A DNA stretch of 64,000 bases from Bacteroidales bacterium (GTDB lineage: Bacteria; Bacteroidota; Bacteroidia; Bacteroidales; UBA10428), in the NCBI GenBank assembly GCA_016934395.1, contig JAFGSZ010000087.1, positions 6,700-70,699 on the forward strand. The letters run 5' to 3'. The notes beneath the pieces were generated by a model, which worked only from the letters and a program-made list of their open reading frames with translations, was not told the origin of the DNA and did no database searches. Positions 12,490 through 34,980 of the stretch are shown piece after piece; within the stretch, counting starts at the first letter, position 1; each line of letters begins with the position of its first letter. A program made the position numbers and the translations under genes.

Positions 12490-12522
12490 AATAGAATAAA
12501 AAACTAAAAAACGATCACAATA

Positions 12523-15477: not shown

Positions 15478-15906
15478 TCATTCCCAATCCGGCTTTTTGC
15501 GTGATTCTTTTTTTCCTGATATTTTTTTCTTACCCTCAATTCTTTTTTCCACTGCTCCCCTGCCCGGTTTTGTAGGAATACGTTTTTTTCGCTTTTGCAG
15601 GGCATAAGAAAGCAAACTGTATAATCGCTGAACAGCCTCCTTTTTATTTTTTATCTGGCTGCGGTGTTCCTGGGCAACAACCTGTAAATAGCCTTCCTTA
15701 TTAATATTATTCTTCAATTTTCTATTTATGACTATTTTTTCGCTGTCTGATAACCATGCAGAAGAGTTGACATGAAACCGCAGCTCAACTTTTGTTTCGG
15801 TTTTATTCACATGCTGTCCGCCCGGTCCGCCGCTGCGGGCAGTAAGAAAAAAATACTCGCTATCCAGCGGGCGTTCAGTTATGGGAAGAGGCAAACTCAC
15901 GTTCAT
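15478..15906 (-). CDS. arfB: alternative ribosome-rescue factor / peptidyl-tRNA hydrolase ArfB
   Basis: 142 aa. GGQ motif (SGGPGGQHVNKTETKVELRF) and a basic C-terminal tail, collinear with E. coli YaeJ/ArfB. Confidence 0.9.
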   Translation of the reverse strand: MNVSLPLPITERPLDSEYFFLTARSGGPGGQHVNKTETKVELRFHVNSSAWLSDSEKIVINRKLKNNINKEGYLQVVAQEHRSQIKNKKEAVQRLYSLLSYALQKRKKRIPTKPGRGAVEKRIEGKKKISGKKESRKKPDWE

Positions 15907-16105
15907 ATTCCTTTAAATAATCCTGTAAAGATAAAATACCCTTTTAAAAATCTGAAATTGTTCAAACAAATACCCACGGATAGCCATCTATTATACTTAA
16001 TTTTACAAAGTATCATTTCATTCGTATTTTCTCTGCCGGATAAAAAACAAATAATAAAACCGGTAAATTTTTAGTTTAATAAAAATACAAATTGATCGTT
16101 TCCCC

Positions 16106-18460
16106 ATGATCAAAAGAATTTCAGTATTACTGTTTATTATAATCTTCAGCAGCCATTTACCAACTGCCATCTGGGGTCAACGGTCTGATGATATTCGTTT
16201 CAGGTCTTCATCAGCAACTATTGAACTTGGGGATACCCTTTTGCTGTCCTGGGAAATAAAAAAGGCAAAACATGTGGAATTAACCGGAATAGCCGACAGT
16301 CTTCCTCTATTTGGAAGTATCCCTGTGATACCCGATACAAATACACGCTATGAATTAAAAGTGACCATAAACAACAGAAAGGAAGTTACCAAAAGAAGAA
16401 GAATAAAAGTTGTTATTCCTGAGATCGAGTATTTTAATGTGCCCGACAGCGCCACAGACGAGGAAGATATAACGGTTGCCTGGAGAACAGAAAATACACA
16501 ATTCGTAAAAATTTCAGGCGTGCAGGATTCATTTCCATCTTTCGGGAAAACCCAAATTCGCATGGACACTTCAGGAACAGTTACATTATATGCTCACGGA
16601 AAATTTAATGTCGACTCCATTTCCGATACCCTTTTTATTCGGATAATTGAAGATTTTAATGTTTCCAAAAAACTCCTGTACCGAGGAGATACTTTGAATA
16701 TAAAATGGAAGACCAAGCTGTCGAATGGTGTGAGGATAGAAGGTATGGATTCACTATTCAGCCCGATAGGGGAACTTATATTACAGCCCAAAGAAAACAC
16801 TAACTACAGGGTATTTGTGGAAAGAAGGTATGGAGCAACAGAATTATTTGCCGGTTTTGATGTAAAGGTGCAGGAGCCCTTTATCAGCTATTTCTGGGGT
16901 GATAATTCCATGCTAAAAGGTGACGAAGCTATGCTGAGCTGGAGTGTAAACGGGGGTGAAAAAATTTCAATCGATGGAATTCCCGCCCATTTACCACGAA
17001 AAGGTTCAAAAACAGTCCGGCCAGATGAGTCCGCCACATACACCTTGCGGGTAAAAGACGGAGCCAGGGAACTCACACAGGATTGGACTGTAAAAGTATA
17101 CCCGTTTCGAAAATATATTTCCTCGACCCGTCATATAAGTCAGATCAATCCAAACGAAAGGCTGGATATGGATATTCTTTCCATTGACCGGGAAAAGTAT
17201 CCCGACGAAATTGTGTTGCGGGCCATTGTGGTGGATACGGCCGGCTATTATATTTCCGGACTGGCAGGTCCCGATTCCTCAGGATATTCATTCGGCAATT
17301 TTTTCTCTAAGGTTAGCGAAACCGTAAACAACAAAAATTCTGCCCGACAGTTTAAGGTGAAAGAAATTCAGGAAACAGCATCAAAACCATATGATATAGC
17401 TTTAGTGCTCGATTACAGCGGATCGATGCAGGGTACGATCAGCTACCTGGAAAAAGCAGTGGAGACTTTTGTTAAACAAAAATACCTGAACGACAGGATT
17501 TCCATAACCAAATTCGATCAAAAAATTGCTACTGAAGTTGCCCTTTCGGGAGATATCCAGGCCATCCTTAAACAGATGGAATTCAGCCAGCTTCGTGGGT
17601 ATGGCGGCCAGACGGCGCTGTATGCCGGGGCAGATGAAGGATTGCGGAATATAGATTCCACACAGCAGCATAAAGTTCTGATATTATTTACAGACGGCAA
17701 TGAAAATTCATCCTTTCAATATTTTGGCCAACTGGCAGTCACGGCCAATCAGCTTGCCCACAGGCTCAGGGAAACCAATACAAAATTGTTTATTGTTTCT
17801 TATGGCACCGGTACCAATACGGACCTTCTGCTCGAACTGGCTTCATTATGCGATGGGAAAACATATTTTATTCATTCGCCGGAAAACATCACCAGGGTGT
17901 TTAATGAAATGCCCAGGGTACTGCACCAGTATTATGAATTCCGGTTTAAACCCATTGAATCCCCGGGAAAACACAGGGTATTTGTCAATTTTAATACAAC
18001 ACCACAAAAACCGGGAAGTGTTTTTACCGATTATTTTATTGGTGATAATTTTACAATTGCCGAGCAGGAATTTGCGGAAGATAATTACTGGTACAGGGAG
18101 ATTGATGGGAAAAAGCCCGTTTCTTCACCCCAGGTTGCCGTAAATTTTGTTTTTAACGAAAATCATATCCGTGAGGAATATCTGAAAAACCTTGAGAAAT
18201 TTTTACATTACCTCGAATCCTTTCCTGATACGGAACTGGATATCCTGGCCCATGCCGATCATGTGGGAACGGCAGAGCAGTGTTTAATTATCGCAGAGCA
18301 AAGGGCATCTGCGGTAAAACAATATTTTATCGAGAGGGGAATTCAGGGAAACAGAATCCATACCCGGGCATTCGGAAAACAATATCCTTTGTGGCCCGAA
18401 GAAAACCAGGACTGGCAATCGTCTGAAAACCGGCGAGTGGAATTGATTTTGCTGGAGTAA
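16106..18460 (+). CDS. secreted protein: four Ig-like repeats + vWA domain + C-terminal OmpA-like peptidoglycan-binding domain
   Basis: 784 aa with a signal peptide. Four repeats of ~85-95 aa follow the pattern L.W....A..V.I.G....F...G...V.P...T.Y.L.V. The vWA MIDAS motif is LVLDYSGSM. The OmpA_C end is RASAVKQYFIERGIQGNRIHTRAFG...NRRVELILLE. Confidence 0.8.
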   Translation: MIKRISVLLFIIIFSSHLPTAIWGQRSDDIRFRSSSATIELGDTLLLSWEIKKAKHVELTGIADSLPLFGSIPVIPDTNTRYELKVTINNRKEVTKRRRIKVVIPEIEYFNVPDSATDEEDITVAWRTENTQFVKISGVQDSFPSFGKTQIRMDTSGTVTLYAHGKFNVDSISDTLFIRIIEDFNVSKKLLYRGDTLNIKWKTKLSNGVRIEGMDSLFSPIGELILQPKENTNYRVFVERRYGATELFAGFDVKVQEPFISYFWGDNSMLKGDEAMLSWSVNGGEKISIDGIPAHLPRKGSKTVRPDESATYTLRVKDGARELTQDWTVKVYPFRKYISSTRHISQINPNERLDMDILSIDREKYPDEIVLRAIVVDTAGYYISGLAGPDSSGYSFGNFFSKVSETVNNKNSARQFKVKEIQETASKPYDIALVLDYSGSMQGTISYLEKAVETFVKQKYLNDRISITKFDQKIATEVALSGDIQAILKQMEFSQLRGYGGQTALYAGADEGLRNIDSTQQHKVLILFTDGNENSSFQYFGQLAVTANQLAHRLRETNTKLFIVSYGTGTNTDLLLELASLCDGKTYFIHSPENITRVFNEMPRVLHQYYEFRFKPIESPGKHRVFVNFNTTPQKPGSVFTDYFIGDNFTIAEQEFAEDNYWYREIDGKKPVSSPQVAVNFVFNENHIREEYLKNLEKFLHYLESFPDTELDILAHADHVGTAEQCLIIAEQRASAVKQYFIERGIQGNRIHTRAFGKQYPLWPEENQDWQSSENRRVELILLE

Positions 18461-18668
18461 TACGTGACGTCATCACGAGGAATTACAAAAGAGAAAGTGT
18501 GCGAGAAAGTAATTCCGTGGTGATCTCAAAACAAAGGAATATAATCCAACTGAAGCCTTAACTTTCTAAAAGATTGCTTCATCCCGATATAATCATCGGG
18601 ATTCGCAATTGTAGATGTTAAGTAATTCGAGGAATTACTTGAGTAGGTTTAGGAATACCCGCTCCTAT

Positions 18669-20243
18669 TTATTCCACCCTGAACCATTCAAATTCCGTAT
18701 ATCCTTCACTTTCTGTTATATTCGGATTTATACAAAACAATCCGACTTTAGCGCCAATCCAGACTCCTTTTTGTGCCCTGAACTCTTTGCCTATTAAATT
18801 ATATTTGATATTATCAGTACTGTAACTGAAGTGACAAATCCCGTATTGATTTACAAACACCCTAAGATAACAGGTGTTTACATCCAAAGGAATTGATTCA
18901 ATTTCCCTGGTGTCATCCTCACATCGAACATAACTTCCTTCATACATACCTATTTTAATTTCGTCTCCGGTTTTGGTGAGCGCCAGGAAGGCCCATTCTT
19001 TTCCCATAATAACCAGTCCGCTGCGATTATTATCCTGCATTTCTGTAAAATTAATTTTTGTGGTTACCGTAAAGGACGGGGCAGGAAATTTTTGTAATAG
19101 CAGGTTAGGGACAAACCAGAGGTTTCCGTTCTGTGTAAAATTCTTCACCGCATAGAGCCTGAGGTTTCCCTGATTTTCCGTTATTGAATACCAATTTCCT
19201 TTCGGATTGGCATGCCACTGCCACTGAAGGCCTAACGTGCTGTTTTCAAATTCATCAGAAGTCTGTGGAACCAAAATTCCGGGAGATGCCGAAACAGCCG
19301 GCTTTTTATAAGAATCCACCGGTTCACCAATCCCGTCGTTATTATTATCAACTCCAATCAAAGGCCATCCATCCTTCCAGCTAACCGGTTGCAGATGTAC
19401 GATACGGCCGTATAAATCCCGGTCCTGGAAATGCATAAACCACCATTCGCCCGAAGGCAATTCTACCAGTCCTCCCTGATGGGGCCCGTTAATTTCCGTA
19501 TTTCCCTGGTGTAACACCACCCTGGATTCATACGGCCCGTAAATATTTTTCGAACGCAATATAGTTTGCCACCCTTTTGGCACACCACCTGCAGGGGCAA
19601 AAATATAATAATACCCATTCATCTTATAAAATTTAGGGCCCTCAATGGTAGGCTGACTGATATCCTTGTATAAAGAAACCCCGTTATCCAGAATTTTTTT
19701 TCCGTCGGGGCTCATTTTGTGAAGAAACAATTCATTACCGCACAATTTACTGCGCACCAGGTAAGCATTCCCGTCTTCGTCCCAAATCGGACAGGGATCT
19801 TCCCATAGTGCCACATTTTCAATATGATGTAAATTCCATTTCCCGGCAGGATCGTCTGCTTCTGCCATAAACAGACCTTCGTGGGGAGTGCAGAAATACA
19901 CGTAAAATTTCTGATTAAAATGCCGGATAGCCGGCGCCCAGGAACCTTCGCCATGAACCGGCTTATTATATTTCTCAAAGGGAAGTCTGTCGTAAACATG
20001 GTTGATAATCTTCCAGTTTACCAGGTCTTTGGAGTGTAATACCGGGATGCCCGGCATACAGTTAAAACTTGAACTCACCATATAAAAATCCTCACCTACC
20101 CTGATAATATCCGGATCGGAATAGTCGGCAAAGATCACAGGATTTTTATAAGTGCCGTTCCCCAATTCAGGAACCCAGGGCTGTGCATGAAGGTTTAAAC
20201 AAATAATTAATCCGATGGGGAACAAACGATAAATTTTTTTCAT
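18669..20243 (-). CDS. GH43 glycoside hydrolase (beta-xylosidase/alpha-L-arabinofuranosidase type) with C-terminal beta-sandwich domain
   Basis: 524 aa with a signal peptide. Motifs: NPVIFADYSDPDIIRVGEDFYMVSSSF, WAPAIRH, EGPKFYKMNGYYYIF. It carries a C-terminal jelly-roll domain. Confidence 0.85.
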   Translation of the reverse strand: MKKIYRLFPIGLIICLNLHAQPWVPELGNGTYKNPVIFADYSDPDIIRVGEDFYMVSSSFNCMPGIPVLHSKDLVNWKIINHVYDRLPFEKYNKPVHGEGSWAPAIRHFNQKFYVYFCTPHEGLFMAEADDPAGKWNLHHIENVALWEDPCPIWDEDGNAYLVRSKLCGNELFLHKMSPDGKKILDNGVSLYKDISQPTIEGPKFYKMNGYYYIFAPAGGVPKGWQTILRSKNIYGPYESRVVLHQGNTEINGPHQGGLVELPSGEWWFMHFQDRDLYGRIVHLQPVSWKDGWPLIGVDNNNDGIGEPVDSYKKPAVSASPGILVPQTSDEFENSTLGLQWQWHANPKGNWYSITENQGNLRLYAVKNFTQNGNLWFVPNLLLQKFPAPSFTVTTKINFTEMQDNNRSGLVIMGKEWAFLALTKTGDEIKIGMYEGSYVRCEDDTREIESIPLDVNTCYLRVFVNQYGICHFSYSTDNIKYNLIGKEFRAQKGVWIGAKVGLFCINPNITESEGYTEFEWFRVE

Positions 20244-21647: not shown

Positions 21648-22664
21648 CTAATATCTGTCAAGGAATCTATAACGACGAACATTATCGCCTAATTTCAAGG
21701 CTAACATAACCTCATGAGAACCATAGGAATAGTTAAGTAATCCTTTGGTGCTAAAATCAAAAGAATAGCCAAAATAAAATCTGCTAATTATTAAGCCTGT
21801 TGAGCCGACAAAAGTCATCCCGGACCGGTAACCCAACCCTAACCAAAACTTATTATTATAAATATATTTTAATGAGGCATCCAGCTGAAATCGCAATTGA
21901 TCAGTAGTTTTAAGGAAAATCGAAGACTCCAGCACATCCTGATCATTCACATCATAAATATACCCTCCAATTAAACTATACTGTCTGTTTAGAACAAATT
22001 CTGAGTTTTCACTAATACTAAAATTAATTGATGCCTGTAATATTTGCAGAATTGATAACCCAAAATATTTATTACGGTCGGTATAATAAAAACCAATATT
22101 TGCATCAGGAATGGATAGAGAAATAATGCTGTTATAGATAGGATCATCTGTTGCATTGGTTAGTGTTAATTCTTTTGTATCAATCACATACGACAAGTAT
22201 CCAAGCGACATACCCATTGAAAATTGTGATTGTCTTCGCAGCTGAAAATGATATGCATAAGAAATTTGTGCCCCGTTTTGAGCAATTTGTCCGGCGTGAA
22301 AATTGTATACGTTAAGGCCCAATCCTACCCGTCCATTACGTAAACGAGCTTTATTTCTATTTCTAACGGAAGCATTTCTATTGATATGACTTTGTTTCAT
22401 CAATCTGGTTTGTACACTGGCCGAATAAACCTTGGGGGCATCTTCAATACCAACCCATTGGTTCCTGTTGGTAAGACTTATTGAAGTAAAACCTTCAGCG
22501 CCGGCTGCAGCCGGGTTCAATAAAAACGGATTAAATGTATATTGACTGTAAACAGGTATTTGTTGTGCAGTACTATTTATTGGCGAGCATAAAAGTATAC
22601 TGCATGTAATAATTATGAGGAGATAATTATTATATTTTATAGTTTTATTGTTATTAATGCTCAT
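21648..22664 (-). CDS. PorP/SprF-family type IX secretion system membrane protein
   Basis: 338 aa with a signal peptide. The family-typical start is AQQIPVYSQYTFNPFLLNPAAAG. The rest is beta-barrel-like with alternating-hydrophobicity segments. It lies 26 nt downstream of the type-B-CTD gene. Confidence 0.85.
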   Translation of the reverse strand: MSINNNKTIKYNNYLLIIITCSILLCSPINSTAQQIPVYSQYTFNPFLLNPAAAGAEGFTSISLTNRNQWVGIEDAPKVYSASVQTRLMKQSHINRNASVRNRNKARLRNGRVGLGLNVYNFHAGQIAQNGAQISYAYHFQLRRQSQFSMGMSLGYLSYVIDTKELTLTNATDDPIYNSIISLSIPDANIGFYYTDRNKYFGLSILQILQASINFSISENSEFVLNRQYSLIGGYIYDVNDQDVLESSIFLKTTDQLRFQLDASLKYIYNNKFWLGLGYRSGMTFVGSTGLIISRFYFGYSFDFSTKGLLNYSYGSHEVMLALKLGDNVRRYRFLDRY

Positions 22665-22690
22665 TATATATCAATTTTGAAATATTGTAA

Positions 22691-23698
22691 TTATCTGATA
22701 AGCGTTATACTACCAACGATTTCTTTTGAACCATCACCCGGATTAATAACATAATAATAGGCATTCACCGGTAAATCTTTTCCGTTCGATTTACCATCCC
22801 ATGGTTTTGAATATCCATTTTCAGATTGAAAAACGAGGGTTCCCCACGGATCGTAAATCCTAACGGATAGGTTTGGATAATTATCATATCCATTTATCAG
22901 CCACAGGTCATTATATCCATCCCCATTTGGAGTAAATGCATTCGGTATGATCAAATCAAAACGGTTAGTACACTGCAATATTTGGATAGTATCGTTCCCA
23001 ATACAGCCATTTGAATCGGTTACCTTAACCCAGATTTGACCATCACCTTCCCGGGCGATGATATTTCTGGTATTCTCGCCGTTACTCCAATCGAAATACC
23101 CCTCAATATCACCGGCATCAAGCAATAACTCATCAGATGCACAAAGCATTGTATCCCCACCCAGATCGATTAATGGCGGTGGACTTACAATCAATAAAAC
23201 AGAATCGCGAATAGTACAACCATTCTGGTTTGTAACCTCTACCCAATAGATTCCATTTTCGTTCGCTACATAGGTAGATGCTGAACTGCCATCCTGCCAG
23301 AGATAACTATCATATCCTTCACCTGGATTAAATTCAATCTGTTCGCCCTCGCAGATCCCTCTTACTTCACCAAGGTTCACAAAAGGAGACTCATTAAGCT
23401 GAATTGATATTTGAATATTATTTCCTAAGCAACTTTTAGCTGTTTCTTCATATACAGTAATCGAGTAGTTGCCCGGAACATTGCCCCAGTTTACTGTGAT
23501 TATATCGGCACGGGATTCAGAAACAATCTGACCGCCCTCAACCATCCAATTAAAACTTGAACCCACATTACCTGTTACTTTGTACTTAATGCCTTTCTGG
23601 GAAGTACAAACCGTATATTGCCCCTGAGCATTCAAGGCAATAATCGTATTTATAACGACCAGATATAACAAATATGTAACAAAGCTTGTAATCTTCAT
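22691..23698 (-). CDS. T9SS type-B sorting-domain (gliding-motility-associated C-terminal domain) protein
   Basis: 335 aa. Order: signal peptide, a PKD-like module (YKVTGNVGSSFNWMVEGG...ITVNWGNVPGNYSITVYEET..CLG), then two ~70-aa Cys-containing repeats (Y.W.dGS...G.YwV.VT..NGC). The C-terminus is IPNAFTPNGDGYNDLWLINGYDNYPNLSVRIYDPWG...GKDLPVNAYYYVINPGDG...ITLIR. Confidence 0.85.
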   Translation of the reverse strand: MKITSFVTYLLYLVVINTIIALNAQGQYTVCTSQKGIKYKVTGNVGSSFNWMVEGGQIVSESRADIITVNWGNVPGNYSITVYEETAKSCLGNNIQISIQLNESPFVNLGEVRGICEGEQIEFNPGEGYDSYLWQDGSSASTYVANENGIYWVEVTNQNGCTIRDSVLLIVSPPPLIDLGGDTMLCASDELLLDAGDIEGYFDWSNGENTRNIIAREGDGQIWVKVTDSNGCIGNDTIQILQCTNRFDLIIPNAFTPNGDGYNDLWLINGYDNYPNLSVRIYDPWGTLVFQSENGYSKPWDGKSNGKDLPVNAYYYVINPGDGSKEIVGSITLIR

Positions 23699-23833
23699 GT
23701 GAAAAAAATGTGTTAAGTATTACTCCTTAACATGTTATTTATATTTTTAATAGTTACTATCTTATTGTTTCTCAATCTGTTCATTAGGAATTATTATTTA
23801 AAATGTCTTTTATATCGGGTATCCTGTTCTTCA

Positions 23834-24520
23834 TTATAATTGAATTATACTCGAAGTGTTTGGTGTCGGATCAATTGTAACTGTATATAATCGTTTTGCT
23901 GCATCAGCCTCGGATCCTGTATAATTAACCGTATAATTATCAGGTGTGGTAATTGATGTAATTCGAATGGTATGGTTTGCCTGTGTTGTACTTGAAGGAT
24001 TTATAAATCCGTCAATATTAACAGTTGTGCTGTTACCTGCCGGAATAGTTACAGTTTGTTCAGCAGCGCCATCGATACTGTAACTAAAACTCCATGCCCC
24101 TGCTACACCAGTATAATCAGCAGTAATGAAAAAATCACCTGTCTGGTTATCTGTTTTCGGACATTGAATTGAGCTGGTCGAATTCCATTTTATATCCATA
24201 TCAACCACGCTTACCAGAAGAGTCTGGTTATTACCTGCACAACCTGACACAAGTCTTGTAGGATACACCGTAATGGTATACATTCCCGGTGCCCCATCCC
24301 ATAGTATATCATTAGATATAGAATCAGTACCAAAAATAGATGAAGTACCTCCAGGAGTTACTGACCAGTTATAATTATAGCTAGCTACTGCAGGAATGGG
24401 AGATACCGTATAGTGATGTGTAGATCCCTTAGTTACCTGAACCTGAGCATTAGAAAAAATAATACAACAAAATAGGAAGACTGTAACCAAACAACTGTAA
24501 ACAATACCTTTTCTCTTCAT
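23834..24520 (-). CDS. secreted two-domain (PKD-like + beta-sandwich) protein, uncharacterised
   Basis: The likely start is ATG 24520 (MKRKGIVYSCLVTVFLFCCIIFSNA-QV); the track ORF extends to 24562. The N-terminal module (STHHYTVSP...YNYNWSVTPGG...ILWDGAPGMYTITVYPT...GCAG) is paralogous to modules in the three neighbouring genes. Confidence 0.6.
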   Translation of the reverse strand: MKRKGIVYSCLVTVFLFCCIIFSNAQVQVTKGSTHHYTVSPIPAVASYNYNWSVTPGGTSSIFGTDSISNDILWDGAPGMYTITVYPTRLVSGCAGNNQTLLVSVVDMDIKWNSTSSIQCPKTDNQTGDFFITADYTGVAGAWSFSYSIDGAAEQTVTIPAGNSTTVNIDGFINPSSTTQANHTIRITSITTPDNYTVNYTGSEADAAKRLYTVTIDPTPNTSSIIQL

Positions 24521-24817
24521 TTTCCTCTCTTGTAAATCTTTTCCCCTTTTTTGCATGTTCATTCAGATACATGATAATAATGCACTGCCTTATAAGTCAA
24601 CGAGATGATTCATTAACTTCATTAAGTTTTCAGGTATTATCTGAAATCTCTTAGAAACTCAGAGGATTCCACAAAGAGAAAAGAATATTATCTCTTTGCG
24701 GAATTCACTTTGTGTTTTTTAGTTGCATAAAGACCTTTATCACCTGTTGCGCAGTATGCTTTACAAAACTCCCTGAAAAGTAGTTTTTCAAAAGCAGACT
24801 AAGCAGTCACTAAATTA

Positions 24818-25588
24818 TTAGTCGTGACGTATTGTTGTTGTTGCAGGTATTGACCAAACAGCAAAGGCATGAGCATTTGTTGCTTCAATAGTTAAGTCTC
24901 CTCCGTAGGAATCTTTTGCACCTGTAATAGTAACAGTTCTAGCCAGGTCATCGGTTGTTGTTGCATTAGCAAGGAATCCAACTCCGGCCGGGATATCCAG
25001 TGTAGCACCAGCATTAGCAACAGAGATTGTAGCTGTACTCGTTGCTCCGGCTATGGTATATTGAACATCAACAGTTATAGGATACGAAACAGTACCTGTA
25101 TATGCTAAAGCCAAAGAATATCCGCCAGCTGCTGGACACTGGTCTGTACCTGTTGCAGTTGAAAATTCAACAGTACCTGTTGGACCTACAAAAACATTTA
25201 ATGATTGTAAAGTACCCGCGCAGCTTCCAAAAGCGGCAGGATTGGTTTCCTGAAGATCAACAACATAATAACCGGCCACTAACCATTCAATATTCTGAAG
25301 CGCATCATTTCCGCCAGCAGTAATATTATAATCAATACCAGCAGTTGCCGCAGCACCCTTTACGTAGGATGAATTCGCTGTATAAATGGTCCATGTATAC
25401 ACGTTAGGAACAGCGCCTCTAACTGTATATGCAACGTCATAAATATGCGTTGAATTAACCCCAACATTATGCGGTGTTGCCAAACTTGGTTGAGTAGGAG
25501 GTGTAGTGGTCTGGGCAAATGAATACCCTGTTAACATAATAGTCAGTAACATACTGCCTATAACTTTTATTAAATAATTTGTTTTCAT
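24818..25588 (-). CDS. secreted two-domain (PKD-like + beta-sandwich) protein, Thr/Ala/Gly-rich, uncharacterised
   Basis: 256 aa with a signal peptide (MLLTIMLTGYSFA-QT). It has the same two-domain layout as the 23834 product (STHIYDV...YTWTIY...NIEWLVAGYYVVDLQET...SCAG, then ..DQCPAAGGYSLALAYTG..). It lies 47 nt downstream of the giant gene. Confidence 0.6.
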   Translation of the reverse strand: MKTNYLIKVIGSMLLTIMLTGYSFAQTTTPPTQPSLATPHNVGVNSTHIYDVAYTVRGAVPNVYTWTIYTANSSYVKGAAATAGIDYNITAGGNDALQNIEWLVAGYYVVDLQETNPAAFGSCAGTLQSLNVFVGPTGTVEFSTATGTDQCPAAGGYSLALAYTGTVSYPITVDVQYTIAGATSTATISVANAGATLDIPAGVGFLANATTTDDLARTVTITGAKDSYGGDLTIEATNAHAFAVWSIPATTTIRHD

Positions 25589-25635
25589 AATGTTACTTTT
25601 TTTTGTTTATTTTTAAAATATTTAGTTTACTTCAA

Positions 25636-28600
25636 TTAATTTTCTTCTAAATCATGATAAATAGGGCTTGTAGGCGGTAGAGTATAAACTGTAACATCCA
25701 ATGTAAGTGGAGAACTTGTTCCGCATCCATTAGTTGTTGTAACACTTAATGTTCCACTGGTTGCGATATCACTATAATCTAAGGTAATCGAATTACCAGT
25801 TCCATTTAAGGATACTCCGGTCGCGGTATAATTCCAGTTATAGGTTGCAGTTGCATCATTGTTTACGGAATACATTACACCGGCAGTATTCTGACAGACA
25901 TAGTCCAGACTTGAAATAAACATGCCGGGTTGTATGGGCAATAGTGGAAAATTAATGATCACATTATCGGAAGAAGTACAGGCACCATTACTTATTGTCC
26001 ATCGCAAGGTATAGGTGGTACCATTGGTACCATTAAACAAGCTGTTAGTAACAGTAGGTTGTACCAAAGTTCCACCTGCCCCGGTAAGAATGGTCCACAA
26101 GCCTGTACCTAAGACCGGAACATTACCTGCCAGCGTGGTACTTGTTCCACCGCAAATTGATTGATCAATTCCGGCATCAGCTACAGTTGGTAACGCGTAG
26201 GTGGTTACCGTTCCCGGATCAACAACACCTGTCCTAACAGGACCGGCATCCGGGGGATTATTATATGTAAAACTGGTCAACTGATATATTGCCCCTGTTG
26301 CCTCGGTTGGTAATAAATAAGGAAGCGAACTGACAGTAACCGGCGCCTGGGCTATTCCATTTTTTGTATAAGAGAGAATATAATTAAGATTAGCAGGAAT
26401 AGTGGTTGTAAAAGACACAGGTATTCCATCTGTACCACAAATTGCTCCTGCCGGGGTCAGCGAAGCCCTTGGTTTTGTACTGTTGATACAAGCCACGGTA
26501 TAGTTCCCTGAAATTGCTGAAGGGAACGTAACCCTGGATGAGGTATATACAGTGCCATTATTATTGTCCCCTATTGTTCCGGAACCTATACTCTGCCAAC
26601 TACCGACTCCTGTATTATAGCCGGCTACATACATATCGCTTAATCCATTCTCAGTCATCAGCGGTGTTAAATCGCTTAAAGGATCCCATTGTATATTAAC
26701 AACTGCCTGGTTCCCCGGACCGGCTCTGACTGCCCAGTATTCCTTTGCATTAACATACGATAAGGGTGAAGTAAGATTCGTTGAAGTTGGATTGGGCGTA
26801 AAATATTCGGCTGTCCATAATAAAGTTCCTGTCCGGGTGGATGAAAGTGACATTTTACTCCCCAATGTTGTGCCTTTTCCGATAGGGAAAAGGAAGCTAT
26901 CTCCCTGGTTAATTTTTTTAATTAAAGGGCCATTCACAAAAGAGGATGAGCTGCCGGCAGAGGGAATTACACAGTTTATAGCTACATTGTTAATTGTAAG
27001 GGTATTGGCTGAATCAGTTTGAATGGTTCCATTTGTTAATAATAAGTTACCGCTTACTTCAATTTCTCCATTGGCATTAATGCTAAGTCCCGCAGGATTG
27101 TTTATTTCCAGGTTATTAAAACTGTTTGTTCCTGTAAAATCACCTAAAGACCCGCCAATGGTTTGAGCTTCAGAACCCGAAAACGATACGGTTGCCCCTA
27201 CGCCGGAACCACTTATAAAGGCACCTGTATTATAAAGTTCCATAGTACCCAAAATGGTAAGCTTGCGATTATTTATGCTGTTGTCAAGTACAGGGCCATC
27301 GATTATAAGCTTTTTGCAGATAGTAAGGTCTTTATTGGGCAACGTTCTTTTGCCACTGCCGGTAAAATGCAGGTTCGGAACAGAACTGAAAAGATCTGCA
27401 ACGATGCCATAATCTGAACTACCTCCATATTCCAGGGTGCTGTTTCCAGAACAATCAAAAAAAGAGTTGTATTTTCCTGCCGGGAGAGTACTGCCTTCCA
27501 AATAGAATGTTCCGTTACCATTAATGGTACCCAGGTTATGTCCAAAATACGGGGCAATTATATTGAGCTTTCCGTTTATTGTTGTTCTGTAGGCAGAACA
27601 AAAACTGGCATCAACATTTATGTCATGATCAACGATTACCACAAAACCATTGGGTCCTCCCGGAGGACATGGATACGTATCACCCCCTGTCTGCACCCAG
27701 TTGTCTTTATCAGACCAACTGCCATCAGCCAGACTTGTATATTCAGGTACCTGATTTGGTATAGCAATATCAATACCAGCTGTATATTCACCACTAAGGT
27801 TATTTGAACTGGTGTAGTTATACGATATCCTATTACCGGTTTCATCAACATTATCAGTTCCCGCTCCAGGGGCAGCTTTAATCCAGCTCGTACCTGGTAT
27901 CAGCAACCGCGCTGCAATAAAATCGGCTTCGGAATTCGAACCGCTTACAAAAACATCAGCATCCTTATAATTAAGCGCCAGCTTGCCACTGAATCCGTTA
28001 ATACCTGAACTTTCAACCTCCCAGAAGTATTGCAGTACATTGGCAGCATCAAGAATCCCTGGATGGTGACTGTTAATATTATTTATCCGGATTGAGCCAA
28101 CGTTTGTGATTGAAGTATACGTTAATTCGGCAGGTGTATATTTTGAGGCTGTACCAATAGGATAGGTAAAAGATAACTCAGGGCCACTATATATACTAAA
28201 GAATTTTTTTATTCCCACGTTACTGAAAACTCCGTCAGAGGCAATCATTTTGGTTGAATTGAATGAACTTCCCTCAATATTGCTGTTCACTCCAAGAGTA
28301 AGTAAGTACTGATTGATATTAAAAACCCCATTGGTTAATATAAGGTTTTTCTGTAAAGTAATGTTGTTCAGAATTCTGGCGCCTTCGGTGTTATCCAGTT
28401 CCAGACGGCCAAATGTTCCGGTGCCGGAAACATGTTGCAGCGATGATCCGTTCAGAATTAATCCTCCCGTGCCGGGATCGCCATCGTAATTGGCATTGTT
28501 TACCATATCGCCTTTCACGTTTATTTTAAAGGTGCTTCCCAATAATTGCCCGGCGTTAAGGGTAAGATCGTTGAATACGGTGATGTCTCTGATTAAAGAA

Positions 28601-31600
28601 AGAGAAGTAACCGGAGTAACCAGCAAATCGTAAAAATCCGTTGACGTTGATCCCTGCAGTGTTTGGATGCCGCCATTAAAAGTTGTGAGGTTATTATAAT
28701 GGTTATAGGCGCCATTGTTGGTAAAGTCACCCTTGATAGTTACATCTATATTATAGGTAGTATTGGCATCAAAAAAACTCCTGTTGTTGGTAAGTGTCAC
28801 ATCGCCATTTAATACCAGGGGACTGATCAACAGGGTAACCGTGGCATTGCGGGGAATACCCGTAGTTTTTCCTGTAATAGTCAGATCATTAAGGGCAACA
28901 TTAGCATCAAGTATATAATTTTGAACAGCATCTACCACCGGACCAACAGGCGGGCTCTGGCTAAAAAGAATTTCACCACCGGTAACAGAACCTGATTCCG
29001 GTCGCAAGTATAAATCTCCAAAGGTATTGCCCCCGCCACCTCGAACAATGGCAAGAGTACCACCAGACATGTTAAATACACTACCGCTGTTAAGTATTTC
29101 AAGTTTTGCATTTGTGCTGATTGCAGCATGCCCATTAATTACAACCGTTCCCCCGCTTTGCGTATAGGATAAAATACCATTAGTTGTGGCAGGATTGCGA
29201 CGTATCTGCCCATTAACGATTAAATTTCCACCCTTTACATCGATAGCCGAAGCGCCCCCTCCGGAATATTCTATATCGTTATCATTGTTTGTGGTGCCAT
29301 TCGTCTGTCCAACGTAAACATTTCCATTTATAAGAGTAAGTCTGCCATTCAGATAGAGGTCATTTGTGCCGGATGCAGCATCTGCAATTAGAATATTCCT
29401 GCTATTAGCGTTAGTATAATCAACATATAAACCCGCAGTAGATGGAATCGTAAATGTACTTACCTGGGTAATTGTAAAATCGGTCCCGGGATCAGTAAGC
29501 ATATATCGAAGGGTGCCATTTAACAACGAGAGCCAGTTATCCGCCGGAGTAATTAGTGTTCCGCCGATATCGATAGTTAGCAGCGTTGCCTGTGAATTAC
29601 CCTTGTTCACGATAAGACTTTCGAAATTGGTATAAGGTGTACTTCCGGTGGCTGGTGTAGTTCCAGTATTGGTCACCGAGGCTGAGTTGTTCCCGAAAAA
29701 GGTAACGGGTAGCAATCGAAAATCGCACCTGCTGGGTGTGGATGTGCCACCTGCATTGGTATTTGTAGTGTTATTGATCAGGCTGCCGCCAATGGATAAA
29801 CTTTGACTTGTAGCGCCACTCCACACATCAATAGCTGCCAAAGGAGCCACTTTAACATCCCCATGAACTACAATATTTTGTGCAATAGCGCCATTCCCAT
29901 ACCAAATGAGGGCGCCGCCCTGTATATCCAGATTACCGTTTATTGTAATTGTCTTTGGAACTCTTACTATTGGCGCCGTTGGATAATTTGTATTCCAGGT
30001 TGGTAAGAACCATGAATCAGCATTCTGGCCCCTGGTAATACAGTTTCCATATATCAGAAGATCTCCGTTGGGGAAAATAATATTTGAACCACCAAGTGGT
30101 GAAAGTATCAGGTTACCGTAGGAAGAAACATTATTGGGCAACCAATAAGTTGTCCCGGCAATGGGATTCACGGAATATAATTCGGTAGTTCCCAGGTTAA
30201 TATTAAATTCGGAAAAATCGCCCGAAGGAAAAGCGTAAGTACTTCCATCGGCATAATTGGTGGTTAATCTGAAAATACCATTCCCATTGGTGTGTGATCT
30301 CACTATACCAAAATTACAGCCCGGGTTGTTTTCAATATCAAGCACAGAACCCGATTCTATTTGCAAACTGGCACAACTAACCACTGAATTATTTAGCTGA
30401 TAATAAGTGGCAGGAGGAGCCGGAGGAATTGTAATGATTGGTGCAGCATATAAATATACCGAATCATTTCCGCCAATAATCACAATATCGGATGCCCCGG
30501 GAACCATAGCGGGTACATTATCAATTGTGTGACTGGTCAGTGACCATGTATTCACATCGCTCCAAAGTCCTGATTGCCGGCTGTAATAAATATTCGGGGT
30601 GCCAAATGGATCGGTTGCATTAATATCTCCTGCAGTATATTCACCATCAATAAAACTTACATTTTCCATAAAACTTCCACTGCCCGGTTCACCAATGCGG
30701 TTGATCACTTCGTCCACATCGTTAATAGTGCCTTTTGTCCATGTATAGGCTGAACTGTTGTACCTGGCAGCCACATAATCATTTTCAGTTACATCACCAC
30801 CATCTACAACATCATTCTCAGAGTAAATATAGGTATGATTGACCTTTGCAGAACCGAGGGTAAATCCGGAAGACACAACTCTCCAAAAATAAGTCAGGCT
30901 TCTATCGCTCGTAGTAACATTAGAATGCTCATACCCTACCGGGATAACCGTTATTGAACCAAAAACCGATGGCGCGGTACCAAAACCAATTGAGGCAGGT
31001 GAATAATTTGCAGCGATATGACTTGCTGAAGGAGCCCCGACCGGAAAATTAAAAGTTGTGCTTGATAAATAAACCTTAGTCAATCCACCATCTCCAGCAT
31101 TACCGCTGGTTTGAATATATCTGTTCGCGCCGGCACCAATAACAGAAGCCGATGGTCCAAGTCTTAAATTATAGGTACCAATATTAAAAAGTTTATCCTG
31201 TGAAAGAGTAAGGGTCCCATTCACAGTGATATTAGCAGCCAAAGAAACCGGAGCAGAAAGGGTATTTGTATTGTTAAGTTCGATATTTTGGAAAATACCG
31301 TCTCCATTACCTGTAATAAGCTGTGGATCATCATCAGCCAGTACAATTTTACCTGTTCCTGAATGAACACCGGAATTGTATAAATAAGAAGTCGTAGTGG
31401 TTGCCGAAGTGGTAAAGTTTATTATTTTCCCTCCGTCAACCAGGTTGCCGTTCAGAATCATCACAGAATCAGCAACTGAAATTATCGATTGGGATCCATC
31501 CAGGGTCAACGATGTTCCTGTTGGTTTATCTAGCTTAAATTTTTTCAACGATAATGCAATAGTAGTATTTACAAAAAAACTCTGGCTGCCTAAACCGTTA

Positions 31601-34600
31601 AATATAGTCCAGTTATTCCCCGGAGTATAGGAAGTTCCATTTGTTATGCTAAAATCTCCACCTACTGAAACATTAAGATCGTTTGTATTAAAATCTCCAG
31701 AGGTCAGAGTTAAATCGTTTAAAACTTTTAAGGGGTAGGTACTCAGAAGCACCACCGATGTGCTGCTTGCCCTGTTAATATTGAGGTTTCCCAGGCTGGC
31801 ATTTGAAATAATAATCTGGTTAGGAGAATCCCCGCCTGTTCCGGTAGTAGGAATTAATTCCAGTGTTCCACCTGTAATGTTAATATTCCCGGTAGAGGAC
31901 AATACTTCGAAAACTTTCTGCTGATTTGCTACCGAGCCATTACCACAGATATCGTAAATGCGAATTGTACCTCCGGATATAGCAAATACATTGGCAGCAT
32001 TATTCACATTAAAAGTTCCCTTAATACCTTCAAGGCCGGCCGTGGACCTGTTGGTATTCAGGGTAGATGTTGTAACATCAATAAGATCATCCACACTTGT
32101 ATATGCAATTGGGGTGCGCTGAAAACGGCCGCGTAAAATGAATGTTCCACCAGACTGGTCGAATGATGCCAATCCACCTGCACCTCCGGCCGCACGGAAT
32201 TGCTTGGCATCCAACGTACCTCCGTTAATTACAAACTGTCCTGATGCCAAATCCCAGGTTATAAAACCTCCCGATTCACGTGTAGAGAAATAACCATTAT
32301 TAATCTGTATTTTTCCATATATCGAAAACGAGCTGCATCCACCGGTACCAACCCCAATTGCTGCATCGTTTGGTGCATTAACATTGTAGGCTACATTCAC
32401 TTCCTTATAATCATCAGCTGTGGATAATACTACCACATCGGGTCCGTCAAGAACCAACGCGCCATTGGCTGGAATATAAAAATCGGAATTAGGACTTGCG
32501 CCTCCCTCGGCGCAAGTACCTTCTGAAAGAGATGGAATTGTGGTTAAACCTTTCAAAATTAATGATCCTGTCCGAATCCACAGCGCTTTTTTCAGGTTAG
32601 GATTACTACCCCCTCCATCCCCACCTGCTATATTGGCTCCAAAAAGTCTGAAGTTAGGATAAGCTGTTGAATACACCGTTAGAGAAAAACTCTGGTCGAC
32701 ACCTTTATCTAATACAAGATTGTAGAAATCAGTAGTATTATTGCAGGTAAGTGTATTATTGGTCGCTCCCATAAAATAAACGGTGGCAAAACCGGTTGTA
32801 GCTCCCAGGGTTATTGGTGGAAAAAAATTATACAAAGGATAACTCAGATTGGTAAACCGCACTGTTCCATTATTTGTAAAATTGCCATAAAGCGCTATCC
32901 TGTGTGAATGGGCATCGTAATAATTTATAAATGGCGCTGCCGTTGAAGTGACAATATTTAAAGGACTGGTGGTTGTGTTTGTAACCCCTGTTCCAACGGT
33001 TATGGAAGCTCCATTATCGACGGTAACATCTCCGTAAACAGTCAGTTGCCGCTTGTTAGCTGTGTTATCATTAATCCTGAAAGTTCCCTGTTTTACCTGC
33101 AGATTGCCATAAATTATTAAATTATTTAACTGTGTGCCAATTGCTCCGGGAGCATTTATTCGTAAATTATTGTATAAAGTCTGTGGAACCGGTAATGTAA
33201 AATTGGCAGTATTATAATATTCTGTTGTTCCTCCTTCTGCATTTACAAAGGTATTTATTAGAGCTGCAGGAAAACTTTCAGAGGCAAGTTTCAGTAATCC
33301 CTGTCCATTAAGTTTCGAAAGACCAGCTGTAAAACTAAAAGTGCTCATGTTAAGAATACCGCCGCTGTTAATATTCAATTCGAGGCCGGAAGCAATAACA
33401 TCACCAGATAAGCTGACAGTTCTGCCATCGAGTATAACAACCACATCATTGTTTCCGGGAATAGTGGTACCAACCTGTGTTGTTCCACCCGGGTCTGAAG
33501 TCCATGTTGAAGGCATATTCCAGTCACCGGTTTGATAGGAATAATAAGTTCCCAAAACACTGGCTGTCCATGAGGAAGTTGTTGTTCCAATATCAGTAGT
33601 ATTTGTAATGGTAAAATTTTGGATCCCAAAACTTGCTGTGCCTGTTGGTACCTGCCAGACTCCCTCACCGGGTTTCATCCAAACAGTTGTAGGGGAAAGA
33701 ACGGCTTCAGCCGGATCATATTGAAAAGTGGCTGTCATTGTTTTTCCACCAGTGCTGGTAATAACATCCCAGTACTTGCTTACACTTTTTGAACCCAGGG
33801 TACCCGAAGGAACTGCTTTTAAACTTAGGGTACCTGTAACAGTACCTGATATTGCCGAAATGCTCATTGGGGAGTAGTAACCGCCTGAACCAACAGGAAA
33901 GAGTATTGGAGTTGTTGCCTGCGCATTTCTGATAAAATCACCTGTGCCGTTGGTTTCGATCATGCTCGTTGAACCCGGAGTACCTTGGATAGCATTAACC
34001 AAATTGTTAGTTAAGATAAGATCATAATTGCCCAATTGTATTACCCCGTTTTCTAAAGCAAGAACGCCTTCAACTGTTGATGTTCCCTGTAAGGATTTAT
34101 TTCCGCCATTTGAAACAGTTAGATTATAATAAGTATAGGCACCCACGTTCTGATCGCCATTCTTATTGTAATTAATAAATCCCGAAGTTGGCGCAGCTCC
34201 GCCTCCGCCATAAGTACTGGTAATACCTCCCCCTGTTATTGTGCCACCAACATTTAAAGTACCCGTATCTGTAAATCGAATATAAGTGCGGTTATTAGTG
34301 TTATCCATAGTAATATCACCAGATACATTAACAGTACCGGTACTTATTTCAATATATGAATCACGGTTATTATTATTTGTTGCACTCAATGAAATGGACC
34401 CGGTAGTATACGTTCCGGTATTTACCAAAATTGCCTTCCAGTCGCCAGTTGAATTTGATGAAATAGAAGTTGCACCGGTTACAGTCAGTATATAAGCACC
34501 GGAAAATGTTAACCACGAATCTTGATTACCTCCTGGGATTTCTATAGAACCAATAACATTTGCAGGAGAAACATCAAGAGTAATGATATGATTATTACCA

Positions 34601-34980
34601 ATCGTAACATTTCCTGTACCCGTATTTTGTCCGGGATATGAAGTAGCTGCAGACCAGTTTCCGGCAGTTATACATTGCTGCCACGTACCCGGAACACTCC
34701 AATTTCCAATTGCATTTGACCGGTAATCTCCTACTGACTGACCAACTAATTCAAAACTGCTAAAAAAATATACACTCGCGGCCAATACAGTAATTTGCAC
34801 CAAATGCTTTCTGCCAGTTTTAAATCTTCCAATGTTTTTATAATGAAAAAAAGAAATAAAGAAAAGAACCCATAAACGAATTTTAAACAAAACAAATTCA
34901 GAGTCACTGTTCAGACTCAAAAACCGGAGATTATAACTACATCCCGATTTAAGCTGCTTATGGTTGCCTATGTATTGCAC
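25636..34980 (-). CDS. giant (about 3050-3114 aa) secreted Asn/Thr/Gly/Ser-rich repeat protein, predicted beta-helix-like fibre with C-terminal Ig/PKD-like modules
   Basis: One uninterrupted ORF. A signal-peptide-like segment lies at aa ~55-82 (RKHLVQITVLAASVYFFSSFELVGQS). Four super-modules each open with Y.S...G.W.....W and close with F.[FY]P[VI]G...Y[FW]W.V. The last ~280 aa are three Ig-like modules. The start codon is uncertain: codon 1 is GTG and there is no in-frame ATG before aa 225. Confidence 0.8.
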   Translation of the reverse strand: MQYIGNHKQLKSGCSYNLRFLSLNSDSEFVLFKIRLWVLFFISFFHYKNIGRFKTGRKHLVQITVLAASVYFFSSFELVGQSVGDYRSNAIGNWSVPGTWQQCITAGNWSAATSYPGQNTGTGNVTIGNNHIITLDVSPANVIGSIEIPGGNQDSWLTFSGAYILTVTGATSISSNSTGDWKAILVNTGTYTTGSISLSATNNNNRDSYIEISTGTVNVSGDITMDNTNNRTYIRFTDTGTLNVGGTITGGGITSTYGGGGAAPTSGFINYNKNGDQNVGAYTYYNLTVSNGGNKSLQGTSTVEGVLALENGVIQLGNYDLILTNNLVNAIQGTPGSTSMIETNGTGDFIRNAQATTPILFPVGSGGYYSPMSISAISGTVTGTLSLKAVPSGTLGSKSVSKYWDVITSTGGKTMTATFQYDPAEAVLSPTTVWMKPGEGVWQVPTGTASFGIQNFTITNTTDIGTTTSSWTASVLGTYYSYQTGDWNMPSTWTSDPGGTTQVGTTIPGNNDVVVILDGRTVSLSGDVIASGLELNINSGGILNMSTFSFTAGLSKLNGQGLLKLASESFPAALINTFVNAEGGTTEYYNTANFTLPVPQTLYNNLRINAPGAIGTQLNNLIIYGNLQVKQGTFRINDNTANKRQLTVYGDVTVDNGASITVGTGVTNTTTSPLNIVTSTAAPFINYYDAHSHRIALYGNFTNNGTVRFTNLSYPLYNFFPPITLGATTGFATVYFMGATNNTLTCNNTTDFYNLVLDKGVDQSFSLTVYSTAYPNFRLFGANIAGGDGGGSNPNLKKALWIRTGSLILKGLTTIPSLSEGTCAEGGASPNSDFYIPANGALVLDGPDVVVLSTADDYKEVNVAYNVNAPNDAAIGVGTGGCSSFSIYGKIQINNGYFSTRESGGFITWDLASGQFVINGGTLDAKQFRAAGGAGGLASFDQSGGTFILRGRFQRTPIAYTSVDDLIDVTTSTLNTNRSTAGLEGIKGTFNVNNAANVFAISGGTIRIYDICGNGSVANQQKVFEVLSSTGNINITGGTLELIPTTGTGGDSPNQIIISNASLGNLNINRASSTSVVLLSTYPLKVLNDLTLTSGDFNTNDLNVSVGGDFSITNGTSYTPGNNWTIFNGLGSQSFFVNTTIALSLKKFKLDKPTGTSLTLDGSQSIISVADSVMILNGNLVDGGKIINFTTSATTTTSYLYNSGVHSGTGKIVLADDDPQLITGNGDGIFQNIELNNTNTLSAPVSLAANITVNGTLTLSQDKLFNIGTYNLRLGPSASVIGAGANRYIQTSGNAGDGGLTKVYLSSTTFNFPVGAPSASHIAANYSPASIGFGTAPSVFGSITVIPVGYEHSNVTTSDRSLTYFWRVVSSGFTLGSAKVNHTYIYSENDVVDGGDVTENDYVAARYNSSAYTWTKGTINDVDEVINRIGEPGSGSFMENVSFIDGEYTAGDINATDPFGTPNIYYSRQSGLWSDVNTWSLTSHTIDNVPAMVPGASDIVIIGGNDSVYLYAAPIITIPPAPPATYYQLNNSVVSCASLQIESGSVLDIENNPGCNFGIVRSHTNGNGIFRLTTNYADGSTYAFPSGDFSEFNINLGTTELYSVNPIAGTTYWLPNNVSSYGNLILSPLGGSNIIFPNGDLLIYGNCITRGQNADSWFLPTWNTNYPTAPIVRVPKTITINGNLDIQGGALIWYGNGAIAQNIVVHGDVKVAPLAAIDVWSGATSQSLSIGGSLINNTTNTNAGGTSTPSRCDFRLLPVTFFGNNSASVTNTGTTPATGSTPYTNFESLIVNKGNSQATLLTIDIGGTLITPADNWLSLLNGTLRYMLTDPGTDFTITQVSTFTIPSTAGLYVDYTNANSRNILIADAASGTNDLYLNGRLTLINGNVYVGQTNGTTNNDNDIEYSGGGASAIDVKGGNLIVNGQIRRNPATTNGILSYTQSGGTVVINGHAAISTNAKLEILNSGSVFNMSGGTLAIVRGGGGNTFGDLYLRPESGSVTGGEILFSQSPPVGPVVDAVQNYILDANVALNDLTITGKTTGIPRNATVTLLISPLVLNGDVTLTNNRSFFDANTTYNIDVTIKGDFTNNGAYNHYNNLTTFNGGIQTLQGSTSTDFYDLLVTPVTSLSLIRDITVFNDLTLNAGQLLGSTFKINVKGDMVNNANYDGDPGTGGLILNGSSLQHVSGTGTFGRLELDNTEGARILNNITLQKNLILTNGVFNINQYLLTLGVNSNIEGSSFNSTKMIASDGVFSNVGIKKFFSIYSGPELSFTYPIGTASKYTPAELTYTSITNVGSIRINNINSHHPGILDAANVLQYFWEVESSGINGFSGKLALNYKDADVFVSGSNSEADFIAARLLIPGTSWIKAAPGAGTDNVDETGNRISYNYTSSNNLSGEYTAGIDIAIPNQVPEYTSLADGSWSDKDNWVQTGGDTYPCPPGGPNGFVVIVDHDINVDASFCSAYRTTINGKLNIIAPYFGHNLGTINGNGTFYLEGSTLPAGKYNSFFDCSGNSTLEYGGSSDYGIVADLFSSVPNLHFTGSGKRTLPNKDLTICKKLIIDGPVLDNSINNRKLTILGTMELYNTGAFISGSGVGATVSFSGSEAQTIGGSLGDFTGTNSFNNLEINNPAGLSINANGEIEVSGNLLLTNGTIQTDSANTLTINNVAINCVIPSAGSSSSFVNGPLIKKINQGDSFLFPIGKGTTLGSKMSLSSTRTGTLLWTAEYFTPNPTSTNLTSPLSYVNAKEYWAVRAGPGNQAVVNIQWDPLSDLTPLMTENGLSDMYVAGYNTGVGSWQSIGSGTIGDNNNGTVYTSSRVTFPSAISGNYTVACINSTKPRASLTPAGAICGTDGIPVSFTTTIPANLNYILSYTKNGIAQAPVTVSSLPYLLPTEATGAIYQLTSFTYNNPPDAGPVRTGVVDPGTVTTYALPTVADAGIDQSICGGTSTTLAGNVPVLGTGLWTILTGAGGTLVQPTVTNSLFNGTNGTTYTLRWTISNGACTSSDNVIINFPLLPIQPGMFISSLDYVCQNTAGVMYSVNNDATATYNWNYTATGVSLNGTGNSITLDYSDIATSGTLSVTTTNGCGTSSPLTLDVTVYTLPPTSPIYHDLEEN

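Follow-up and report, generated by a model that had tools for sequence, protein, structure and literature searches.

A cluster of five genes was analyzed in a stretch of 64,000 nucleotides (nt) from a Bacteroidales bacterium (assembly GCA_016934395.1, contig JAFGSZ010000087.1), referred to here as the window. [quoted passage not shown] No CTD was recognized in the giant or the small subunits; each of them closes with a short conserved tail, and exactly that segment is missing from the N-termini of the downstream proteins. We favor, with moderate confidence, a split T9SS cargo in which the subunits would join head-to-tail by strand addition from tail to domain, the chain being exported and anchored through the single type-B CTD and its PorP-like carrier. 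The features are listed below; coordinates are positions in the window, and all five genes lie on the minus strand.

25636..34980 (-), giant gene, open reading frame (ORF) of 3114 amino acids (aa) with a GTG start, mature protein of ~3034 aa
24818..25588 (-), S256 gene, small subunit of 256 aa
23834..24562 (-), S242 gene, small subunit of 242 aa (228 aa from Met15)
22691..23698 (-), CTDB335 gene, anchor subunit of 335 aa, type-B CTD protein
21648..22664 (-), PorP338 gene, 338 aa, PorP/SprF-family outer-membrane carrier and anchor for type-B CTD
25639..25683 (-), giant tail TLPPTSPIYHDLEEN, read as a linker plus an orphan A-strand
24821-24853 (-), S256 tail SIPATTTIRHD
23837-23872 (-), S242 tail DPTPNTSSIIQL
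24667..24704 (-), stem-loop of 14 bp in the 255-nt spacer after the S256 gene (folding energy in the text)

Products of the five genes

An earlier interpretation made from the letters of the window (the sequence-only reading) had described five co-directional minus-strand ORFs, and an ORF check returned exactly the sizes and gaps given there. From the giant to PorP338, the intergenic gaps are 47, 255 (297 from Met15 of S242), 135, and 26 nt. The true start of S242 is probably Met15 (nt 24520), giving 228 aa, because the orthologues use that start. A Sec-type signal peptide followed by Gln at +1 was read by eye in all five proteins, including the giant and both small proteins, for which it had been proposed before. 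The signal peptides end in Ala or Gly before the Gln (..A-Q or ..G-Q), and a lipobox Cys occurs in none. A Gln at +1 after the signal peptide is known as the Bacteroidota Q-rule.

The signal peptide of the giant likely ends in ..VLAASVYFFSSFELVG, directly before Q81. The start codon of this gene (region 34797-34842, minus strand) is uncertain because the window reads AAA where the closest complete orthologue, at locus L006, has its ATG start. Possible starts are ATT (Ile50), TTG (Leu60), GTG (Val61), and the far-upstream GTG at 34980; either an error in sequencing or the use of an unusual start codon could explain the difference.

The 335-aa protein ends in a type-B CTD at aa 250-335 (nt 22694-22951), matched by PF13585 (2e-23, 82.7 bits; cut-off 27 bits) and TIGR04131 (1.8e-21, 76 bits; cut-off 35 bits). 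The last gene encodes a PorP/SprF-like protein, matched by TIGR03519 (3.5e-71, 240 bits; cut-off 90.55 bits) and PF11751 (1.1e-69, 235 bits). Both assignments had been made from the sequence, and binding of a type-B CTD to a neighboring PorP-like carrier is established biology (PMC9143113, PMC12618676). Neither the type-A models (TIGR04183 and PF18962) nor the type-B models matched the giant, S256, or S242 when hits up to E<=1 were allowed, and a type-A CTD was found in none of the five proteins. Profile-profile comparison (hhalign) of the S256 family with the CTDB335 family, which could have exposed a hidden CTD, aligned the two N-terminal domains only and not the CTD. The claim that the giant and the small proteins carry no recognizable CTD was thus upheld, but the statement that they end right after an immunoglobulin (Ig) module had to be corrected, as a conserved tail of 11-15 residues closes each CTD-less protein.

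Before its CTD, CTDB335 carries an acceptor-type PKD_6-like domain at aa 25-104 (nt 23387-23626) and then two Ig_7-like domains, and it has no donor tail. The PKD_6 match is weak (aa 24-82), and the mature N-terminus, QGQYTVC, corresponds to a start at position 10 of the PKD_6 profile. The giant has a single profile match, to PKD_6 at aa 3021-3096 (1e-10), and the pattern G-x-W-[SN]-x(3-6)-W occurs in it four times, at aa 92, 485, 1471, and 2420. Its Ig/PKD_6 domains lie at the C-terminus; it has a donor tail only, with neither a CTD nor an acceptor-type N-terminal domain.

No family was matched by S256 or S242 in the profile searches. The two small proteins, which had been called paralogues, are indeed related, but weakly so (26% over 185 aa, E 1.6e-4), and both are also weak paralogues of the last ~190 aa of the giant. 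S256 consists of a signal peptide, a conserved N-terminal extension (QTTTPPTQPS..), two Ig-like domains, and the tail. An AlphaFold2 monomer model of mature S256, built on 40 sequences, showed two Ig-like beta-sandwiches with a predicted local distance difference test (pLDDT) score of 86.6; a Foldseek search with this model returned generic tandem Ig/Fn3 folds only, and a sequence search of the S256 family against the PDB gave no match. S256 defines a rare family, which comprises 43 clusters at 90% identity, occurs in six species-level genomes among 185,579, and forms 54 clusters at 50% identity among 1.84 billion representatives.

The N-terminal extension of mature S256 is Thr/Pro-rich and nearly invariant (QTTTPPTQPS.A.PHN, before the first Ig strand), and it partly resembles the tail motif (PPTQPS versus PPTSPI). 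It could be a self-complementing strand, part of an acceptor site, or a glycosylation site.

C-terminal tails and truncated N-terminal domains

Among the giants, one tail reads LPPTSPIYHDLEEN, and orthologues of the window giant end in LPPTTLIYHDLEGN, VPPTSLIYHDTE, IPNTSLIHHD, and PPPSTTAIHHDE. In the S256 family, the extreme C-terminus reads W-S-[IL]-P-A-T-[TS]-[PT]-I-[HR]-H-D, in which P248, T250, and I253 never vary and at least 90% of the sequences keep H255 and D256. The tail ranks among the most conserved parts of S256, and its end point is fixed (..HD). The S242 family ends in PTP[NG]TSxIIQL (PTPNTSSIIQL in the window). Even in remote relatives of less than 30% identity, a tail Pro is placed ~10 residues and an Ile ~4 residues from the end. 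The stand-alone giants and the proteins of locus L017 terminate in a longer form, PxTGPxY[HR][IVLK]PN. A motif test showed the tail to be specific to these proteins: 42 of the 43 S256-family clusters and 33 of 36 remote relatives of 200-300 aa matched, compared with none of the 42 other ORFs of the window and none of 119 CHU_C proteins.

The nature of the tail was read from cis copies of the opening domain of CTDB335, in which the segment ..isF-PLLPVQP-gsyi-VSSPQ-VC leads up to the conserved VC. The giant tail, TLPPTSP-IYHD-LEEN, aligns to the cis segment PLLPVQP-gsyi-VSSPQ. By this alignment the tail is an interdomain linker plus the first (A) strand of a PKD_6/Ig domain. The mature acceptor proteins begin five residues before the VC position. 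S242 likewise opens its Ig domain without the linker and A-strand (mature N-terminus QVQVTKGSTHHYTV), and the same segment is missing from the N-terminus of all small and CHU_C proteins at the other loci. Consecutive proteins are therefore always divided just after strand A of an Ig domain, with the remainder of that domain on the next protein. Tails and truncated N-terminal domains are equally numerous in each complete cluster: three and three in the window, six and six at L007, and two and two at L009, with S256 counted as an acceptor.

The tail might alternatively be a new, self-standing sorting or recognition peptide that the PorP-like carrier, the T9SS, or some other machine would read, so that each CTD-less protein would be exported alone and assembly, or separate action, would take place only at the surface. 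Relatives of the giant, searched with its last 700 aa as query, came only from uncultured Bacteroidales and Tenuifilaceae assemblies, and some of them end in a cis type-A CTD (P0016, matched by PF18962; P0025, P0027, P0030, P0031, and a 538-aa ORF of L004). The giant family is therefore T9SS cargo. Within this family, the tail position holds the type-A CTD in other branches, an alternation that a sorting signal might show, and no partner genes accompany the stand-alone giants that carry the longer variant K[IQ]PETGPxYH[IV]PNxF. Non-canonical C-terminal signals of the T9SS are also known, as in the cargo ChiA of Flavobacterium johnsoniae. Known T9SS signals are, however, folded domains of 70-100 residues, compared with 11-15 residues for the tail. 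Moreover, the tail matches the linker and A-strand of cis domains, the downstream proteins are devoid of exactly that segment, and fusion proteins described below keep the tail internally, directly upstream of the next Ig domain, which fits a structural strand and not a terminal signal. A sorting peptide is thus considered unlikely.

Recurrence of the module and gene fusions

The module, composed of a tip protein, one to five tailed small proteins, a type-B CTD protein, and PorP, was found at no fewer than ten independent loci with different flanks. The loci were arranged as follows.

L003/L012, L006/L015 (6.2-Mb contig), L011, L013, and L014: the same five genes
L007/L008: giant, five small proteins, 563-aa CHU_C protein
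L009/L010: giant, S256, 537-aa CHU_C protein, PorP
L017 (remote relative): giant, small proteins, CHU_C, PorP
L018: 508-aa HYR-domain protein in place of the giant, four small proteins, 853-aa CHU_C, two PorP
L019: small protein, CHU_C, PorP, then five further small proteins

The identity of the giant orthologues to the window protein was 78% in L006, 52% in L007, and 46% in L009. Conservation of the five-gene order in other genomes, on which the sequence-only reading had made its proposal depend, was therefore observed in many lineages with differing flanks, but it is not universal, since the giants of L001 and L002 stand alone.

This recurrence bears on the idea that the cluster is the decayed remnant of a single giant type-B adhesin gene broken by stop codons, with the tails as functionless leftover linkers. 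The idea was considered since the proposed protein chain is collinear with one SprB- or GhpA-like protein, fused versions exist, the start codon of the giant is uncertain in the window, and several homologous giants are fragmented in long-read assemblies (L001, L004, and L005). It was rejected as highly improbable: a separate signal peptide followed by Gln at +1 opens every ORF, the spacers measure 26-255 nt, at least ten loci with 45-83% identity, and also remote relatives, retain the split architecture, and the tail residues are invariant in proteins that end at a fixed point (..HD). The fragmented giants themselves were called as 3-6 successive ORFs in long-read metagenome contigs, which probably reflects frameshift errors of assembly and not true gene splitting.

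Fusions of the separate proteins were detected at three places. The 537-aa protein of L009/L010 (P0093) is an in-frame fusion of S242 (54% identity) and CTDB335 (49% identity); at its junction, RLYTVKVEPAPGTFWIVPDTSLFSKDSVSLCAG, the S242 tail lies directly upstream of the mature N-terminus of CTDB335, and a short linker replaces the signal peptide. A 475-aa protein of L016 joins S256 (54%) to aa 164-335 of CTDB335 (60%), and its junction, HTLTIW-PRPAINLGND-TMLC, has an Ig_7 linker and A-strand where S256 carries SIPATTTIRHD. In P0231, two small subunits are arranged in tandem with the first tail kept. The three were counted as independent events, and by Rosetta-stone reasoning they suggest that the split proteins act in series and in physical contact. 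The surroundings of the L016 fusion (8455-20019) comprise a PorP gene on the opposite strand, then the S256-CTD-B fusion, and then a giant of another family (>2743 aa), which runs off the contig downstream.

The same fusions are relevant to the suggestion that neither the giant nor the small proteins belong to an exported fiber and that they instead serve the CTD-B/PorP pair as accessory factors in the periplasm or outer membrane, like SprC and SprD beside SprB. The presence of Sec signal peptides on proteins devoid of a CTD agrees with such a role, as does the sprCDBF operon, which places helper genes beside the CTD-B cargo so far as a reference cited in PMC12635249 indicates. In three genomes, however, a small subunit forms one polypeptide with another small subunit or with the CTD-B protein that is exported, and there the small subunits travel with the CTD-B protein. 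In addition, giant homologues elsewhere have their own type-A CTD, and the Ig domains of the giant resemble those of the surface filament GhpA. A purely accessory role is accordingly regarded as quite improbable.

A candidate split T9SS fiber and its known counterparts

The assembly that we favor would proceed as follows. All five proteins would leave the cytoplasm by Sec, and we infer that in the periplasm each tail would dock on the protein that follows, adding a beta-strand to its N-terminal domain. The giant, with a tail and no acceptor domain, would be the distal or tip unit; S256 and S242, each with a truncated N-terminal Ig domain and a C-terminal tail, would be connectors; and CTDB335, with a truncated N-terminal domain, no tail, and the sole type-B CTD, would be the proximal unit. 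The resulting chain, giant > S256 (possibly in several copies) > S242 > CTDB335, would have the topology of one SprB- or GhpA-like protein that bears a single CTD at its C-terminus. The T9SS translocon would export the chain through the CTD of CTDB335, and the PorP-like protein would keep it on the cell surface as a static anchor. The sequence-only reading had proposed that the CTD-B and PorP/SprF proteins act as an export or anchoring adaptor of a multi-subunit surface structure; the recurring module, the fusions, the lack of a cryptic CTD, and the homologues with a cis type-A CTD favor this proposal, although the synteny is not universal.

Several observations weigh against the proposed assembly. 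In L001 and L002, giants with a tail occur without neighboring genes for small, CTD-B, or PorP proteins. When tails were joined to the acceptor domains, the Pfam PKD_6 score rose by ~2 bits and the alignment start moved from position 10 to position 6, a gain too small to count. In the S256 model, the tail is coil (pLDDT ~79), and the conserved N-terminal extension of S256 itself forms a short strand in the fold, so that S256 might be self-complemented. The AlphaFold2 model of the fusion P0093, obtained from a shallow alignment, had a pLDDT of 46, with less than 30 in the tail region, and was too poor to judge docking. In this poor model, the N-terminal domain of CTDB has seven strands from the ..VSLC segment without the tail, and docking would therefore be edge-strand addition and not the filling of a deep groove. 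All cluster relatives are uncultured metagenome genomes, and the literature searched held no precedent for T9SS export of a non-covalent multi-protein complex.

The arrangement had been presented as not known to be described, and the literature searched gave no case of CTD-less subunits attached to T9SS cargo. A search for donor-strand or strand complementation, hitchhiking, and filament subunits in the T9SS yielded only type V pili and unrelated systems. The closest comparison is the SprB-SprF pair of F. johnsoniae and type-B cargo generally (PMC9143113, PMC12618676, PMC12635249). Shared features are a type-B CTD gene beside a PorP/SprF-family gene, a very large repetitive surface protein in the operon, and a carrier expected to export the cargo and then retain it on the surface. 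SprB has its CTD in cis, whereas the giant of the window and two further secreted proteins have none, the CTD being placed on the separate 335-aa protein.

A second difference from SprB-SprF concerns the carrier. SprF is tied to the gliding track by a Cys-x-Cys motif in its periplasmic C-tail, which forms a disulfide with GldK (PMC12635249). The C-tail of PorP338, ..GDNVRRYRFLDRY (..RRYRFLDRY), has no cysteine and no such motif, and the only cysteines of the protein are in its signal peptide, which makes a static fiber likelier than a gliding adhesin. PorP/SprF-like proteins at L018 (13917-16263) and L019 (8065-9114) have a basic C-tail with a single Cys (..ALSCPKF.., ..ALDCPKS.., and ..AIACPKF..). 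Judging from these C-tails, some related fibers may be disulfide-linked to the GldK/PorK track, and that of the window not.

The GhpA grappling hook of Aureispira (PDB 9flp; bioRxiv 10.1101/2024.01.29.577165) is the only solved structure with sequence similarity to the cluster. CTDB335 matched it at 9.7e-34 over ten stretches, including the CTD, and its Ig domains were the only similarity of the giant in the PDB (4.9e-16). GhpA is also a T9SS surface filament of Ig-like domains, and the gene after it, ghpB, encodes a PorP homologue. It is, however, one chain of 5898 aa with its own CTD, assembled as a parallel heptamer, whereas several chains placed end to end are proposed for the window. The ghpA cluster further includes a PorE homologue, ghpC, and the PorP-PorE type of static anchor (PG1035, GhpB/C) goes with an adjacent PorE-like gene. 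No PorE-like gene (TPR/WD40/OmpA_C) adjoins the window cluster. Because the carrier is devoid of the Cys-x-Cys motif and a PorE-like gene is not adjacent, a static fiber held by PorP alone is the most likely arrangement predicted from the gene content. A 784-aa VWA and OmpA protein is encoded on the opposite strand ~3 kb from the cluster (16106-18460, plus strand); it is peptidoglycan-binding like PorE, has another architecture, and in its Pfam domains does not resemble PorE.

Type V pili of Bacteroidia (FimA/Mfa1; PMC4789730, PMC5954841) follow a shared logic, in which a C-terminal strand replaces the missing N-terminal strand of the next subunit, and they likewise have a tip protein, connectors, and an anchor that accepts but does not donate a strand. 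Their pilins, which are lipoproteins, lose the N-terminal strand to a protease specific for Arg; they are not themselves T9SS cargo and use no CTD or PorP. By contrast, the open site of the window subunits would come from signal peptidase I alone, and the window proteins have no lipobox and no FimA or Mfa Pfam match. The sequence evidence from the fusions and the cis domain copies is compatible with an analogous mechanism of C-terminal donor-strand exchange. Chaperone-usher pili and other donor-strand filaments share incomplete Ig-like subunits, completed in trans by the terminal extension of a neighbor, and a large tip adhesin. Their donor strand is N-terminal and replaces the last (G) strand, and they need a chaperone and an usher; genes for either were found neither in nor beside the window cluster.

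Set beside these systems, the arrangement represents a new form of type-B T9SS cargo, and it may even be a fiber of a new kind. Tentatively, it may represent an unrecognized class of Bacteroidota fiber, a T9SS-dependent pilus of Sec-exported Ig subunits joined head-to-tail, with a CTD on the basal subunit only; the CTD-less proteins, including a tip adhesin of 3000 residues, would ride across the outer membrane, and S256 may polymerize as the shaft. The S256 tail is closer to that of the giant than the S242 tail is. The stem-loop after the S256 gene has a folding energy of -21 kcal/mol (z = -3.6 for a 101-nt stretch); its arm motif, TTCCGCAAAGAG, also occurs in L011 and L014, and at that position L006, L013, and L009 have strong hairpins of unrelated sequence. 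The stem-loop may adjust the level of S256 against that of the downstream genes, and stem-loops are common after major-pilin genes. From the likeness of the tails and the conserved stem-loop, it may be speculated that S256 might form a shaft in several copies.

T9SS cargo is defined, and counted in genome surveys, by a CTD on each exported protein. If CTD-less proteins are exported through a CTD-bearing partner, the T9SS secretome would be under-counted, the translocon would be able to carry non-covalent complexes, and a route of strand-addition assembly would exist without chaperone, usher, or activating protease. The cluster makes it testable whether one CTD and one PorP-like carrier can export and anchor a chain of separate proteins, and the tail motif combined with an N-terminal Ig domain directly after the signal peptide provides a rule to search for more such systems.

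Downstream of the cluster lie genes for an RsgA GTPase and a GH43 glycosidase, and an acyltransferase gene lies upstream; none of these is related to the cluster, which is therefore self-contained. Scans for sigma-70 promoters and terminators gave site numbers no higher than chance, and the Bacteroidetes-type TAnnTTTG box was absent from the cluster spacers. Elsewhere in the window, a 1133-aa protein with Reg_prop beta-propeller repeats and Y_Y_Y and GAF domains (7505-10906, minus strand) resembles a hybrid two-component sensor/regulator, with no kinase domain detected. A 431-aa multihaem cytochrome c (14005-15300, minus strand; Cytochrome_C7, MtrC/MtrF domain II/IV, paired CXXCH) is also encoded, which is unusual in Bacteroidales.

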